In this document: positions 1,727-5,615 of the stretch, one piece after another
How positions within the stretch are numbered: the first letter of the stretch is position 1
How the letters are laid out: the number at the start of each line of letters is the position of its first letter
Notes under the pieces: generated by a model
What the model saw: the letters and a program-made list of their open reading frames with translations, nothing else
Told to the model about the DNA's origin: nothing
The model's database searches: none
Program-made: the position numbers and the translations under genes
IMG/VR virus record: IMGVR_UViG_2695420369_000012
Direction: 5' to 3' (one strand)
DNA length: 5,615 nucleotides
Origin: a virus
Taxonomy: Duplodnaviria; Heunggongvirae; Uroviricota; Caudoviricetes

Positions 1727-1802
1727 GGCCCTTTAGCTCAGTGGTGAGAGCGAGCGACTCATAATCGCCAGGTCGCTGGTTCAAATCCAGCAAGGGCCAC
1801 CA
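1727..1802 (+). tRNA. ileZ: tRNA-Ile2 (anticodon CAU, lysidine type; ileX/ileZ-like). Could be scored as tRNA-Met by anticodon alone
   Basis: Hand-folded cloverleaf: acceptor GGCCCTT/AAGGGCC, D-arm GCTC..GAGC, anticodon loop CTCATAA, T-arm GCTGG-TTCAAAT-CCAGC, encoded CCA. Near-identical to E. coli ileX as I recall it. Confidence 0.85.
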
Positions 1803-1809
1803 TCACATA

Positions 1810-1886
1810 CCGCCATTAGCTCATCAGGAAAGAGCGCCAGCCTTCGAAGCTGGCTGCGCGGGGTTCAAGTCCCCGATGGCGGTCCA
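1810..1886 (+). tRNA. tRNA-Arg (anticodon UCG)
   Basis: Acceptor CCGCCAT/ATGGCGG, anticodon stem CCAGC/GCTGG with loop CTTCGAA, T-arm CGGGG-TTCAAGT-CCCCG, encoded CCA. Confidence 0.8.
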
Positions 1887-1899
1887 TTATCTGCATCAT

Positions 1900-1976
1900 G
1901 CGTTGTTAGCTCAGCCGGACAGAGCAATTGCCTTCTAAGCAATCGGTCACTGGTTCGAATCCAGTACAACGCGCCA
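1900..1976 (+). tRNA. tRNA-Arg (anticodon UCU)
   Basis: Acceptor GCGTTGT/ACAACGC, anticodon stem ATTGC/GCAAT with loop CTTCTAA, T-arm ACTGG-TTCGAAT-CCAGT, encoded CCA. Resembles argU-type tRNA. Confidence 0.85.
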
Positions 1977-1990
1977 CACTTATTTTCCCT

Positions 1991-2016
1991 GGCTCGCTTT
2001 TGCGGGCCTTTTTTTT
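1991..2016 (+). terminator. intrinsic terminator after the tRNA cluster
   Basis: Stem GGCTCGC / GCGGGCC (one G-U pair) with loop TTTT, followed by a T8 run. Confidence 0.6.
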
Positions 2017-2236
2017 AAATGTCTCACAATTCAGACGGTTGACAGTTGTCTGTTTTGCGGGGAGTTTGTTAAAAGAAACTGGCATGGTGAATCCCCCTGT
2101 GCGGAGGGGCAATCAGCGAGTAGGTATATGGGATAATCGCGGATTCAGGTGCTGGTACTGAATTCACCGGGAGGCACCCGGCATCATGCAATGGCACATA
2201 GCGCCACTCTCCAGCCCTCTCCGGAGGGGCTTTTCT
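2013..2236 (+). repeat. conserved ~225-bp structured element, copy A (candidate small RNA with its own terminator)
   Basis: Matches 4566-4790. The 3' ~170 nt are near-identical (1 substitution, 1 indel); the 5' ~50 nt carry about 6 substitutions. Contains TTGACA at 2039-2044, an extended -10-like TGtTAAAAG at 2068-2076, several internal hairpins, and a terminal GC hairpin + U-tract at 2213-2236. Confidence 0.7.
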
Positions 2237-2463
2237 GTGCCGGATACATCACAGTTTCTGGAACCTTAGGTACTACAGTATCAGTCAGGGTGCTATATTT
2301 TCAGATGTGATGAAAGCCTGTCAGCAGGCAGGGCGTATCGGAAATGACCCAGTAGAGAAAACGTTGACTCAGATACCGGTGCTGAGTTACCGGGAAACCG
2401 GCATCACATGACCGCTATCCTGAGGTGTACTGGCAATAGCGGACACTACCATTTGTTCTTTTT

Positions 2464-3282
2464 TTAAGCAGCCATCTGATGATATTTTTCCCTGAAGGCT
2501 GCCGGGGAGATATTCCCCAGACGAGAGTGACGACGCTGACGATTGTAGAAAATCTCAATGTATTCCCGTATTACTGAGATGGCTTCATCCCGGTTATTAA
2601 AACGATAGTGGCTCAGGCTCTCATTTTTCAGCGTTCCCCAGAAGCTTTCCATCGGAGCGTTGTCGTAACAGTTACCTTTACGCGACATTGATGTTTTCAG
2701 ACCAGACTGCTCCTGTATGACCCGGTAATCGTATGCGCAGTACTGTGAACCTCGATCAGAGTGGTGGATTAGCCCGGCAGGTGGGCGCTGGCTCCTGAGC
2801 GCCATAAACAGGGCTTTACCTGTCAGCTCTTTTGTCATGCGCTCTCCCATGGCGTAGCCGACAATTTCGCACGTATAAACATCTTTGATGCCAGCGAGGT
2901 ACAACCATCCCTCCTGTGTGGCAACATACGTCAGGTCCGCCACCCAGACCTGATTTGGTGCTGTAGGAGCGAACGTCTGGTTCAGCAGATTTGGCGCAAC
3001 TGGCAGATTGTGGTTCGAGTTCGTAGTCGCTCTGAACTTGCGTTTCTGCTTACAGCGTAGCCTTAGCTCCTTACGAAGACGTGCCAGTCGGTCACGACCA
3101 ACGATGATGCCATTCTCTGCCAGCTCCGTCTGGAGCCGCCGGGTTCCATATGTTTCGCGAGTGCGGATATGTGCCACCTTAATCTCCAGTTTTAGCCGCT
3201 CATCACTTTGTTTTCTGTCTGAGGGTTCATGCTGTACCCAGTTGTAATAACCGCTCCTGGATACACCAAATACCTGACACAT
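2464..3282 (-). CDS. IS3-family transposase OrfB (DDE integrase core)
   Basis: 272-aa ORF with hallmark IS3 OrfB segments: VWVADLTYV...GWLYLA, HSDRGSQY, SMSRKGNCYDNAPMESFWGTLK, YNRQRRHSRLGNISP. Confidence 0.9.
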   Translation of the reverse strand: MCQVFGVSRSGYYNWVQHEPSDRKQSDERLKLEIKVAHIRTRETYGTRRLQTELAENGIIVGRDRLARLRKELRLRCKQKRKFRATTNSNHNLPVAPNLLNQTFAPTAPNQVWVADLTYVATQEGWLYLAGIKDVYTCEIVGYAMGERMTKELTGKALFMALRSQRPPAGLIHHSDRGSQYCAYDYRVIQEQSGLKTSMSRKGNCYDNAPMESFWGTLKNESLSHYRFNNRDEAISVIREYIEIFYNRQRRHSRLGNISPAAFREKYHQMAA

Positions 3283-3317
3283 CGCTTCAATGGGAAATTG
3301 TTGTCGCCATTGTTCGA

Positions 3318-3589
3318 TTAACGCGTATTTTTCAGCGACTCCTGTGCAAAATACGCTGTTGCTTTTTTTAATATATCTCGCTCAAGGCGAGCTTCATTTA
3401 ACGCCTTACGCAGTTGCAGAATTTCAGATTCCAGTTCAGCCACCGTGCGGGAACCAGGAGTACCGAGCCCTTTTCTGGCGGCGGTAACCCATTGTCCTAA
3501 AGTGCCTTCAGGAAGAGATAATCGGGAAGCGCCTTCACTGATCGAAAGTTGATTTTCAATTTCTTTATTTCGGTTCCATACCCACGCGC
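3318..3589 (-). pseudogene. IS3-family OrfA, 5'-truncated (C-terminal ~90 codons remain)
   Basis: Minus-strand frame reads ...EIENQLSISEGASRLSLPEGTLGQWV...ELESEILQLRKALNEARLERDILKKATAYFAQESLKNTR*, with stop at 3318-3320. The N-terminal start is missing because the IS is cut at 3589. Confidence 0.7.
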
Positions 3590-3594
3590 CTACA

Positions 3595-3618
3595 ACCCGC
3601 CGCCGAGCGGGTTTTTTA
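3595..3618 (+). terminator. second copy of the tR'-like terminator, fused directly to the truncated IS end
   Basis: Same hairpin as 137-159 (ctacaACCCGCcgccgaGCGGGTttttttat), but with no pR' or Q upstream. Confidence 0.5.
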
Positions 3619-3656
3619 TTGCGGAATTAATTACGGACCGTTATTATTCTGCTCCC

Positions 3657-3732
3657 GGCCCTTTAGCTCAGTGGTGAGAGCGAGCGACTCATAATCGCCA
3701 GGTCGCTGGTTCAAATCCAGCAAGGGCCACCA
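3657..3732 (+). tRNA. ileZ: tRNA-Ile2 (CAU), second copy
   Basis: 76/76 identical to 1727-1802. Confidence 0.85.
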
Positions 3733-3739
3733 TCACAAA

Positions 3740-3819
3740 CCGCCATTAGCTTATCAGGAAGAGCAGACGACACGATAACAGGGTTGTTGGTGCGGGGGCG
3801 GGTCCCCGATGGCGGTCCA
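3740..3819 (+). pseudogene. degenerate tRNA-Arg-like gene: acceptor stem and D-arm kept, anticodon arm and T-loop replaced
   Basis: Same acceptor stem (CCGCCAT/ATGGCGG) and D-arm as the tRNA at 1810-1886, but the interior reads AGACGACACGATAACAGGGTTGTTGGTG and the T-loop is GCGGGT rather than TTCAAGT. I could not fold a canonical anticodon stem. Confidence 0.5.
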
Positions 3820-3832
3820 TTATCGGTATTCA

Positions 3833-3909
3833 GCGTTGTTAGCTCAGCCGGACAGAGCAATTGCCTTCTAAGCAATCGGTCACTGGTTCGAATCCAGTAC
3901 AGCGCGCCA
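3833..3909 (+). tRNA. tRNA-Arg (UCU), second copy
   Basis: Identical to 1900-1976 except one acceptor-stem position (A to G), which leaves a G-U pair. Confidence 0.85.
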
Positions 3910-4019
3910 TATTCATTCTTCCAGATTCCTTCCGGCAGAGCCTTATACTGAAATATACCTGGCTCAGGATATTGTTGAAAATATTTTATGTTTGTCAAAA
4001 ATAAAAGTTCTGTTAAGTA

Positions 4020-4373
4020 TTGATTGAGTGTTTGTTATACGGTCTAATGGTTTTTTCAGCATTAAATATTTATCATTCATATGGTGTGGGTAGAGTGAAT
4101 ATTGATGAGGCGTCGGGGTGTTTCATCCTTAGGCAGCGTATTGATATAGTCAATGCAGCACGAGCAAAGGCCTTCAGCCGTTTGACAGTTTTGTTCTGTA
4201 CTCCTGATCGTCTTTCGGGAAGAGACGTTATTATTCTGAATAGTGATGCTATACAGAGGGTTTGCGATGAGTTCATGGTTGCTAATTCAGAATTATTTGC
4301 TCTTGTTCAGGAGTACAACAGAATAGCCAGGACCTGTGGTATGGATGAACTTCGGATTACTCATCTGGGGTAG
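4020..4373 (+). CDS. hypothetical protein (up to 117 aa) in an AT-rich insert; start uncertain (TTG 4020, ATG 4047 or GTG 4095)
   Basis: Open frame in an AT-rich segment that is absent from the first module. No convincing Shine-Dalgarno at any candidate start. No recognisable motif. Confidence 0.4.
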   Translation: MIECLLYGLMVFSALNIYHSYGVGRVNIDEASGCFILRQRIDIVNAARAKAFSRLTVLFCTPDRLSGRDVIILNSDAIQRVCDEFMVANSELFALVQEYNRIARTCGMDELRITHLG

Positions 4374-4565
4374 ATACATATCTGGATTATCACCTGTTAC
4401 GGTAAAAAGTGATTGCTTACTGTTTTTGTGAATGGCATTGCAGCAGCCGGATAATGTCAGTGCTGGCTGACGGTGTGCTGGTGGCGGGTGTGGTGGTTGT
4501 TGCTTTCCCGTTGCTGAAAAAGAAAACGCCAGACTGTTAGCCGGGTATCAGTTAGCGGGAGAAAT

Positions 4566-4790
4566 TTTTAAATACTTCACAATTCAGGCGGTTGACTGTT
4601 GTCTGGTTTGCGGGGAGTTTGTTAAAAGAAACTGGCATGGTGAATCCCCCTGTGCGGAGGGGCAATCAGCGAGTAGGTATATGGGATAATCGCGGATTCA
4701 GGTGCTGGTACTGAATTCACCGGGAGGCACCCGGCACCATGCAATGGCACATAGCGCCACTCTCCAGCCCCTCTCCGGAGGGGCTGTTTA
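4566..4790 (+). repeat. conserved ~225-bp structured element, copy B
   Basis: Matches 2013-2236. Terminal hairpin CCCCTC tccg GAGGGG followed by ctgTTTaTaTT. Confidence 0.7.
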
Positions 4791-4820
4791 TATTGATTTT
4801 GTCAGATGTGAGTAAACTCC

Positions 4821-5156
4821 TTATGGACTTTGTTGTTTTAGTCCATAAGGACATATTTGCAGAGTGCAACGGTTATTAAAGCATTCATTCAATACGTTAT
4901 CTGTATTTGTAGGGCATTCCTGGCTATTTTTGATTGAATTCCAGAATGTTTTATTGAATGGTACTACGTTGTAAATGGTTACAGGTAGCACTTTGTTATT
5001 GAGCATGATGCCTGTGTGAGTCAGTGTAAATATACTTTCAGGAGGTAAGAAAGCATCCGATTGATACCAGATTATTAATTTTATTTTACTCCATATGACT
5101 GAAAAAGATATTCCGCATGATGGCTGGATAACTGTATCAATCACAATCCACTTCAT
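4821..5156 (-). CDS. iraM: IraM-like anti-adaptor protein (YcgW/ElbA family, RssB inhibitor that stabilises RpoS); 111 aa
   Basis: Strong Shine-Dalgarno (AAGGAAactaa-ATG). The N-terminus [19 protein letters not shown] and the C-terminal ICPYGLK with conserved cysteines (SQECP...C...C...ICPYG) match my recollection of E. coli K-12 IraM, at roughly 60% identity overall. AT-rich context. Confidence 0.65.
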
Positions 5157-5196
5157 TTAGTTTCCTTGTTTATGCCTTGCTGGTGATGTTCTGAAA

Positions 5197-5223
5197 AGTA
5201 TAAATGATATTTTTGAATGTAAA
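5197..5223 (-). promoter_or_regulatory. candidate sigma70 promoter for the IraM-like gene (-35 TTTACA, -10 TATACT, 15-bp spacer)
   Basis: Read on the minus strand: TTTACA is the reverse complement of 5218-5223 and TATACT of 5197-5202, about 40 nt upstream of the ATG. The spacer is short. Confidence 0.25.
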
Positions 5224-5416
5224 CCATAGAGCAGAATTATTTTTCTGATGTTGTTTATTGTTTATTTAAATGCAGGGTGGTTTATATCTCGTCTTGTAGT
5301 TTATCCATGCATATCTGCTTGATAATCAGGTTTTTATTTAAGGTATGGTTTTGTGTTTTTTCTGTATTACATGTCAGGTATTTTAAAGAATTATTTTTCA
5401 GATGGTGGAAAGAACC

Positions 5417-5543
5417 ATGGCATTTAAACACTATGATGTTGTCAGGGCGGCGCCGCCGTCAGATCTTGCGGAAAAGCTGACACATAAACTGAAAGAGGGC
5501 TGGCAGCCGTTTGGTAGTCCGGTGGCCATAACCCCTTATACCC
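5417..5543 (+). pseudogene. DUF1737-like small phage protein, 3'-truncated by IS insertion
   Basis: ATG at 5417 with RBS GGTGGAAAG. MAFKHYDVVRAAPPSDLAEKLTHKLKEGWQPFGSPVAI resembles the small proteins that precede holin genes in lambdoid phages. The frame runs into the IS end at 5544 and picks up IS-derived residues. Confidence 0.4.
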
Positions 5544-5615
5544 TGAGGTGTACTGGCAATAGCGGACACTACCATTTGTTCTTTTTTTAAGCAGCCATCT
5601 GATGATATTTTTCCC
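5544..5615 (-). mobile_element. second copy of the same IS3-family element; only its terminal 72 bp fall in the window
   Basis: 5544-5615 matches 2421-2492 (TGAGGTGTACTGGCAATAGCGGACACTACCATTTGTTC...). Confidence 0.75.

Follow-up and report, generated by a model that had tools for sequence, protein, structure and literature searches.

STnc100 small RNA genes on either side of a partial IS600 in a lambdoid prophage segment

Gene order and the repeated element

The stretch of DNA analysed here (the window, 5,615 nt from the Caudoviricetes record IMGVR_UViG_2695420369_000012 of IMG/VR) consists of two prophage modules separated by a partial IS600. It carries tRNA genes, the 3′ end of a Q antiterminator gene, an iraM homologue, two near-identical copies of a small RNA (sRNA) element and a third, divergent unit of the same family. 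The following features frame the two copies:

1727-1976, plus strand: prophage tRNA cluster (CAU Ile/Met-type, Arg-UCG, Arg-UCU), from ARAGORN and Rfam
1991-2008, plus strand: terminator after the tRNAs, directly 5′ of copy 1, from a terminator scan
2299-2415, plus strand: third, divergent STnc100-family unit ('unit B'), core kept, linker and terminator cut by IS600 at 2416
2416-3559, minus strand: partial IS600 separating the two prophage modules (repeat D4), 99.7% identical over 1144 nt to annotated IS3-like IS600 elements
2464-3282, minus strand: IS600 transposase ORF
5539-5615: second IS600 end, interrupting a DUF1737 ORF at 5539

Positions 1-2415 match one type of prophage, an intact version of which is present in Escherichia coli ATCC 11775, and positions 3590-5546 match a second type with 98% identity. 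The arrangement of the window is absent from complete E. coli RefSeq genomes, none of which covers at least 80% of it; the source may therefore be a Shigella or some other strain rich in IS600. Since two prophage types are joined here by a partial IS600, the two copies are neighbours through an IS600-mediated rearrangement and not through local duplication of an sRNA gene. Matching E. coli prophages have the order Q, 65-aa ORF, DNA methylase, tRNA-Ile/Arg/Arg, STnc100, iraM or DUF1737/SASA esterase, holin and lysozyme, and tRNAs followed by STnc100 are also found in prophages of O157:H7 and ATCC 11775. In phage VT2-Sakai, the homologous unit lies 52 nt 3′ of stx2B, upstream of the SASA esterase and lysis genes. 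The element thus occupies the late region of lambdoid prophages at the 'moron' site that Tree et al. described 3′ of PR′, and does so in several copies, with three family units in the window.

Several neighbouring features are recorded here in their own right. At the left end of the window, TTGATT-16-TAAATT follows the 3′ end of the Q antiterminator gene (1-52), and a strong terminator (136-155) with a T-run comes next; positions 1-165 are a candidate PR′-tR′ short leader, analogous to lambda 6S RNA or StxS. The 136-155 terminator is repeated at 3594-3613 (3590-3626), adjoining the IS600 remnant. In the second tRNA set (3733-3832), the flanking tRNAs are intact, and the middle tRNA-Arg(UCG) is degraded and called by neither ARAGORN nor Rfam; E. 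coli relatives of this module likewise have two annotated tRNAs only. The iraM homologue (4821-5156, minus strand) is prophage cargo convergent with copy 2, and its terminator hairpin (4819-4851) lies about 25 nt past the sRNA terminator. IraM is an anti-adapter protein that stabilizes RpoS.

A repeat search of the window aligns 1999-2217 with 4552-4770 at 94% identity without gaps. Base-by-base comparison sets the limits of the repeat at 2012-2233 and 4565-4787, showing that the coordinates given in a preliminary description of this DNA (2013-2236 and 4566-4790) were right. The promoter part (2012-2081 versus 4565-4634) has 6 mismatches in 70 positions (91% identity), and the transcribed part (2082-2217 versus 4635-4770) a single mismatch in 136 (T2184 versus C4737; 99% identity). 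Right after 2217, the terminator stem contains a 1-nt indel (CCCTCTCC in copy 1 and CCCCTCTCC in copy 2), with one further mismatch between the indel and 2233. Identity ends abruptly on either side: 5′ of 2012, 13 of 22 bases differ, as in an unrelated flank, and past 2234 the copies differ at 54 of 67. These values bear out the pattern originally noted, of a near-identical 3′ part, a diverged 5′ part and unrelated flanks. A chance origin is impossible for a repeat of such length and, because the tRNA blocks adjoining both copies are only 91-94% identical, its transcribed part is better preserved than its surroundings.

STnc100 family membership and the covarying core

STnc100 is a gammaproteobacterial sRNA first listed in Salmonella. 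Searched against all Rfam families with cmscan, copy 1 (2053-2242, 123.6 bits) and copy 2 (4606-4795, 132.4 bits) both match RF02076 (STnc100) over model positions 1-206 of 206, compared with a gathering score of 47 bits. It is therefore nearly certain that both are full-length genes of this catalogued lambdoid-prophage sRNA family; the element is of an already known kind, and no new kind of element is added. The preliminary description had proposed a prophage sRNA gene whose RNA is under selection, and could not name a family. The Rfam scan provides the name, and the RF02076 matches support the proposal together with compensatory substitutions in 129 homologues. The window copies have the helices, terminator, prophage context and multi-copy habit of the Rfam family, with nothing essential different. 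The published qPCR primers for STnc_100 have exact matches at 2083-2102 and 2156-2175 and at the equivalent sites in copy 2, and these positions agree with the published 93-bp amplicon; primers identical to the window have been used to quantify STnc100 RNA in outer-membrane vesicles of STEC by RT-qPCR. STnc100 is reported as a multi-copy prophage sRNA, with 11 copies in EDL933, one of them Northern-positive. A megablast search with copy 2 gave matches in 2786 of the 5426 complete E. coli genomes, with as many as 11 sites in one genome, and many complete E. coli genomes contain sequences 100% identical to it.

Unit B gives a weak cmscan match (2281-2469, 21.8 bits, E 0.13), and its core has the closing stem AUGUGAUG ... 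CAUCACAU and a P5-like CCGG-GAAA-CCGG. The intact orthologue in ATCC 11775 reaches 30.1 bits (E 2e-4), ends in a terminator of its own and lies between two strong STnc100 units. In that prophage, three units (L249, 3317-3994; 136, 30 and 161 bits) are arranged in tandem, a separate terminator ending each of them.

A 19-mer spanning helix P5 was searched in public genomes and viral contigs, yielding more than 240 loci in Enterobacterales; cmscan confirmed STnc100 units at most of the 19 loci sampled. From Enterobacterales genomes and viral contigs, 129 cores of less than 88% identity were aligned with MAFFT (alignment A2). The core comprises the following parts, with compensatory changes and paired cells as counted in the alignment:

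2082-2189, plus strand: structured core of STnc100 copy 1, from RF02076 and covariation on alignment A2
2082-2089 / 2182-2189, plus strand: P1 closing stem, compensatory changes in 6 of 8 pairs, 91.7% of cells paired
2090-2092, plus strand: junction AAU of the copy 1 core, between P1 and P2
2093-2097 / 2103-2108, plus strand: P2, A2105 bulged, loop UGUGC, compensatory changes in 3 of 5 pairs, 99.4% paired
2109-2140, plus strand: variable region of the copy 1 core, between P2 and P4
2141-2148 / 2158-2165, plus strand: P4, compensatory changes in 7 of 8 pairs, 74.6% of cells paired
2167-2171 / 2177-2181, plus strand: P5, loop AGGCA, 100% paired, invariant because it was the search pattern and hence uninformative
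4635-4742, plus strand: structured core of STnc100 copy 2, with P1 at 4635-4642 / 4735-4742

Across the 129 homologues, the family fold pairs 89.6% of cells, versus 41-46% with slid partners, and its covariation score is 0.377, versus 0.05-0.125. The preliminary description had named covarying stems in homologues as a check on its proposal, and such stems are present: the STnc100 fold is backed by compensatory changes in P1, P2 and P4, and P5 is consistent with it. RNAalifold independently recovers P1, P2 and P5 from alignment A2. It places P2 in the register CCC|CC ... GG-A-GGG, with a bulged base, a UNNGC loop and CG-to-GC swaps (A2 columns 52-68, window 2093-2108); the register of the Rfam consensus (CCCCU/AGGGG) was rejected, as it pairs 81.4% of cells versus 99.4%. 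The long-range closing helix is GCAUGGUG/CAYCAUGC (2082-2089 / 2182-2189). The complementary arms to which the preliminary description had pointed, GGTGAAT (2086-2092) and ATTCACC (2162-2168), do exist but are not the covarying pairing: 15 of 15 homologues with GAUGAAU compensate in the arm 3′ of P5 (CAUC), which is the real partner, and not in UCACC 5′ of P5. We note that the fold has a topological resemblance to a cloverleaf with a long variable arm. A tRNA-like gene was considered separately and rejected, ARAGORN calling five true tRNAs only.

The two copies differ in condition. The minimum free energy fold of copy 2 is the family fold (-69.2 kcal/mol, z -2.66), and isolated copy 1 RNA is no better folded than shuffled controls (z -0.38). 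Copy 1 keeps all core pairs, one pair of P1 being G-U owing to T2184. Comparison with the ATCC 11775 orthologue shows this G-U pair and the loss of 1 nt from the terminator stem to be derived; copy 2 is intact, and copy 1 carries these two lesions.

The covariation bears on whether the similarity of the copies reflects an RNA at all. Shared modules are sites of recombination between lambdoid prophages, core and 3′ modules have been reassorted between phages, and the window itself is an IS600-mediated chimera, all in keeping with a DNA-level repeat that recent recombination or gene conversion between prophages has kept similar, with no RNA function. However, homogenization cannot yield base-pair covariation across genera, and the homologues are expressed, making this explanation very improbable.

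The core also contains a 25-codon ORF (ATG2084-TGA2161, encoding MVNPPVRRGNQRVGIWDNRGFRCWY), which the preliminary description called conserved. The ORF is intact in both copies, and ribosome footprints on some EDL933 copies, with coverage up to 3.2, would be compatible with a small-protein gene. However, coverage of the EDL933 copies ranges from 0 to 3.2 and is inconsistent between them, with other copies at 0-0.1. Variation in the stems is compensatory, and no Shine-Dalgarno sequence was found 5′ of ATG2084, which lies inside P1. At the level of the family the ORF is not conserved in start, length or frame: among the 129 homologues, 24 have ATG at the aligned start, 70 have GTG and 35 have a codon that is no start, ORF length varies from 5 to >37 codons, and the spacing between conserved blocks falls evenly into the three frames (46/42/41). 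Codon-position entropy in the same set (1.00/0.64/0.69) has no excess of variation at third positions, which are not the most variable. A small-protein gene at 2084-2161 was rejected on these grounds, and we give it hardly any credence.

Promoter-like signals, transcript ends and terminators

The signals on either side of the cores are as follows, hexamers having been read from the sequence:

2039-2075, plus strand: promoter region of copy 1
2039-2044, plus strand: TTGACA of copy 1, 25 nt from the -10 element, too far
2046-2051, plus strand: TTGTCT of copy 1, 18-nt spacer
2067-2068 and 2070-2075, plus strand: putative extended -10 element of copy 1, TG and TAAAAG
2190-2212, plus strand: single-stranded linker of copy 1, AAUGGCACAUAGCGCCACUCUCC, between core and terminator
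2213-2231, plus strand: stem-loop of the intrinsic terminator of copy 1, then UUUCUGU to 2238, from the terminator scan; stem one C short
4592-4628, plus strand: promoter region of copy 2, with TTGACT (4592-4597), TTGTCT (4599-4604), TG (4620-4621) and TAAAAG (4623-4628)
4635-4794, plus strand: STnc100 copy 2, intact, with core, linker, terminator stem-loop and UUUAUAUU
4743-4764, plus strand: linker of copy 2, between core and terminator
4765-4786, plus strand: terminator stem-loop of copy 2, then UUUAUAUU (4787-4794), from the terminator scan

A consensus scan found no canonical sigma-70 promoter at either copy, and one was rejected for copy 1, where TTGACA at 2039 is too distant from the best -10 element. 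Judged from their hexamers, the promoters would be of the extended -10 type at best. The terminator scan finds a terminator-like hairpin and a T-run at both copies. Most family members, across genera, have a TATAAT-like hexamer ending 7-12 nt 5′ of P1, and RpoD ChIP-exo signal has been reported at Salmonella copies of STnc100. The transcript of PasD2, an sRNA of EPEC, is 172 nt long; its 5′ end, estimated from RNA-seq, coincides with the opening G of GCAUGGUG, with which P1 begins, and its 3′ end is the terminator U-tract. Transferred from PasD2, the 5′ end would place the transcription start of the window copies at G2082 and G4635, only one or two bases from the starts predicted in the preliminary description (2083 and 4633). 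TAAAAG would then lie at -12 to -7 and TG at -15/-14, as in an extended -10 element, and the predicted RNA would be about 153-160 nt long.

The U-tracts of both terminators are short or interrupted. Copy 2 has a closing stem around hairpins followed by a terminator hairpin; the same plan is found in copy 1, where the terminator stem is one base short, without one C that is present in copy 2 and in the ATCC 11775 orthologue. Across the family, a terminator occurs no more than 90 nt from P5 in 127 of 231 members, with a median linker of 24 nt. VT2-Sakai and PV11-77, both Stx2 phages, have identical STnc100 cores and different linker-plus-terminator modules, a difference that indicates recombination at the P5/P1 boundary; the module of PV11-77 is that of this window. 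An 18-nt similarity between the linker and IS600 (repeats I1/I2) was rejected, as it has the same sense as the transposase mRNA, allows no pairing and is at chance level.

Relatives, mode of action and significance

Published E. coli copies and relatives of STnc100 (EcOnc27/sRNA103 and PasD) are discrete Hfq-associated RNAs of about 170-190 nt at the same prophage position. EcOnc27/sRNA103 overlaps a predicted STnc100 3′ of stx2B. EcOnc27 is among the RNAs crosslinked to Hfq (Hfq-CRAC) and is visible on Northern blots, and overexpression of EcOnc27/sRNA103 raises fimZ and espA transcripts, the effects on espA being judged indirect. Its site in the Stx2 phage Sp5 (VT2-Sakai, 933W) holds the STnc100 core motifs, in the same position 5′ of the SASA esterase and lysis genes. 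However, it follows stx, whereas the window units follow tRNA genes; its BLAST identity to the window is only 71-81%, over parts of the element, and its linker/terminator module is different. A convergent AsxR-like partner was not detected in the window by the Rfam scan.

A 2026 preprint proposes common descent of STnc100 and the EPEC sRNAs PasD1 and PasD2. Northern blots confirmed PasD as one of the Pas sRNAs, for which Hfq-dependent stability is reported, and corroborated the size of PasD2. PasD forms RIL-seq chimeras with many mRNAs, and the chimeras and a predicted seed lie in the 3′ linker. The PasD1/PasD2 locus (EPEC E2348/69; EcOnc13 in EHEC) has the order Q, hypothetical gene, DUF3927, sRNA, SASA esterase and holin, like the window type. 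PasD1/PasD2 and the window copies have the same 5′ arm GCAUGGUGAAUCC, and PasD RNA likewise runs from P1 to the terminator. P2 and P5 of PasD2 differ from those of the window copies, and PasD2 scores 41.4 bits with the STnc100 model, below the gathering score. The resemblance is one of core similarity only and not near-identity, and the UGUGAG seed (TGTGAG) is absent from the linkers at 2190-2212 and 4743-4764.

Other lambdoid RNAs offer parallels in position or organization. The anti-sRNAs AgvB and AsxR are likewise found at the moron site 3′ of PR′ and bind Hfq, and in them a conserved module is joined to a variable one that does the targeting. However, they are 51-60 nt long and structurally unrelated to STnc100, and their models (RF02702, RF02703) have no match anywhere in the window at E up to 1. 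Lambda 6S RNA and StxS are short terminated late-region transcripts read through by Q-modified polymerase, and StxS binds Hfq. They start at PR′ directly after Q, corresponding to 56-165 in the window; STnc100, in contrast, is found about 2 kb 3′ of that position, past the methylase and tRNAs, with promoter-like signals of its own. With this distance from Q, and with a VT2-Sakai homologue that follows stx2B and not Q, the element was rejected as a late-promoter (PR′) leader. The HK022 put antiterminator RNA was also rejected as a relative, STnc100 having no match in HK022 22000-40751 at E up to 5, a comparison of homology to STnc100 only.

The wider family includes tandem arrays of 3-5 STnc100 units, found on six viral and genome contigs from Pantoea, Superficieibacter, Enterobacter and metagenomic phages, with a spacing of about 253 nt in several viral contigs. 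Some arrays adjoin tRNA genes and isrI-type RNAs, and some of their units consist of the core only (model positions 31-147) or have no terminator of their own. Variants with another P2 sequence (GAAUGCGGCUNAGCGCACG), at nine loci and others, keep P1, compensated P2 pairs and P5; among six scanned, only one reaches the Rfam gathering score (47.8 bits). Several of these variants precede an ORF of unknown function by 25-70 nt, as a 5′ leader would. The downstream ORFs have no common Pfam family, with DUF1317 and a sub-threshold DUF5983_N match only.

The overall explanation that we favour, and judge to be somewhat probable, is an STnc100 family gene in the moron zone, between the Q-dependent late promoter and the esterase/lysis genes, that works as a trans-acting sRNA. 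For the mechanism as such, the odds are roughly even on the most economical model, in which the copies are independently transcribed, Hfq-dependent, base-pairing sRNA genes with a core scaffold and an exchangeable 3′ seed. Transcription would begin at G2082 or G4635 from a weak extended -10 promoter and end at the intrinsic terminator. By comparison with homologues, the RNA would be bound and stabilized by Hfq, and would pair in trans through its single-stranded 3′ linker, while the conserved core may serve as a scaffold in which the 5′ end is sequestered. In lytic growth, polymerase modified by Q would continue through the STnc100 unit.

We are cautious about the seed mechanism because the literature holds no validated direct target for any STnc100 proper, and because conservation is strongest in the core (GGUGAAU, the P2 loop GC and P5) and not in the linker. 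Such core-centred conservation is unusual for a seed-driven sRNA, suggesting that the core itself does something. Also against the favoured explanation are the scan for sigma-70 promoters, with none of canonical form in the window, the short or interrupted U-tracts and the poor folding of isolated copy 1 RNA. The main alternative to the seed mechanism accordingly makes the conserved multi-helix core the functional part, as a domain binding protein or RNA, for instance a decoy or sponge for a conserved host factor (Hfq, ProQ or an RNase) or for core sRNAs, with linker and terminator as no more than its expression cassette. It would fit the identity of the P5 19-mer in Escherichia, Salmonella, Klebsiella, Kosakonia, Pantoea, Erwinia and Rahnella, although this invariance is partly a selection effect of the search pattern, and the 19-mer varies in PasD2 and unit B. 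In the 129 sequences the junction GGUGAAU and the P2 loop GC vary little or not at all, with linkers unalignable; the tandem arrays, including units without their own terminator, and the neighbouring prophage sRNAs AgvB and AsxR, which are proven sponges, also speak for a function of the core. Against these stand the PasD interactome, which maps to the 3′ part and not to the core, and the fact that no partner is known, and we consider a core-centred function possible at a rather low probability.

The constant position between late promoter and cargo on one side and lysis genes on the other, the terminator at the end of each unit and the convergent sRNA dyads reported at the moron site would be compatible with a different, cis-acting role in the late operon. 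The element would then be a terminator or insulator keeping lysogenic tRNA/cargo transcription from the lysis genes, or would act in processing or stability of the late mRNA, with the short RNA as a by-product. However, a terminator needs no 108-nt covarying five-helix core, a separate terminator (1991-2008) already follows the tRNAs, and promoter-like -10 elements lie at a fixed distance from P1 across genera. The occurrence of homologues as discrete Hfq-associated RNAs, the recovery of PasD in chimeras with many mRNAs and the lack of similarity to HK022 put antiterminator RNAs argue in the same direction, and we regard the cis-acting role as distinctly unlikely.

STnc100 is among the most frequently annotated sRNA families in bacterial genomes, and variants in the STnc100 copy directly behind the Shiga toxin 2 genes were among the features predicting HUS in a machine-learning study. 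The practical value of the window lies in annotation, since RefSeq shows an antisense partial 'hypothetical protein' instead of an ncRNA; PGAP places this pseudogene over STnc100, with the ncRNA unannotated, at L247 2491-2616, L248 2991-3116, L249 3336-3461 and L001 8697-8822. The family-wide analysis adds experimental handles in the form of strong covariation, a corrected P2 register, the shuffling of core and 3′ modules, and tandem arrays. As a speculation to which we attach low confidence, the role of the ~108-nt core may go beyond that of a scaffold: it could be an RNA domain in its own right, autonomous and of ancient origin, that is carried by enterobacterial mobile elements and binds a conserved factor of the cell or the phage. 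STnc100, PasD and the unannotated variants with another P2 would then belong to a single superfamily of modular 'platform' RNAs, disseminated as single units, tandem arrays and 5′-leader-like variants and fused to exchangeable 3′ seed/terminator modules.
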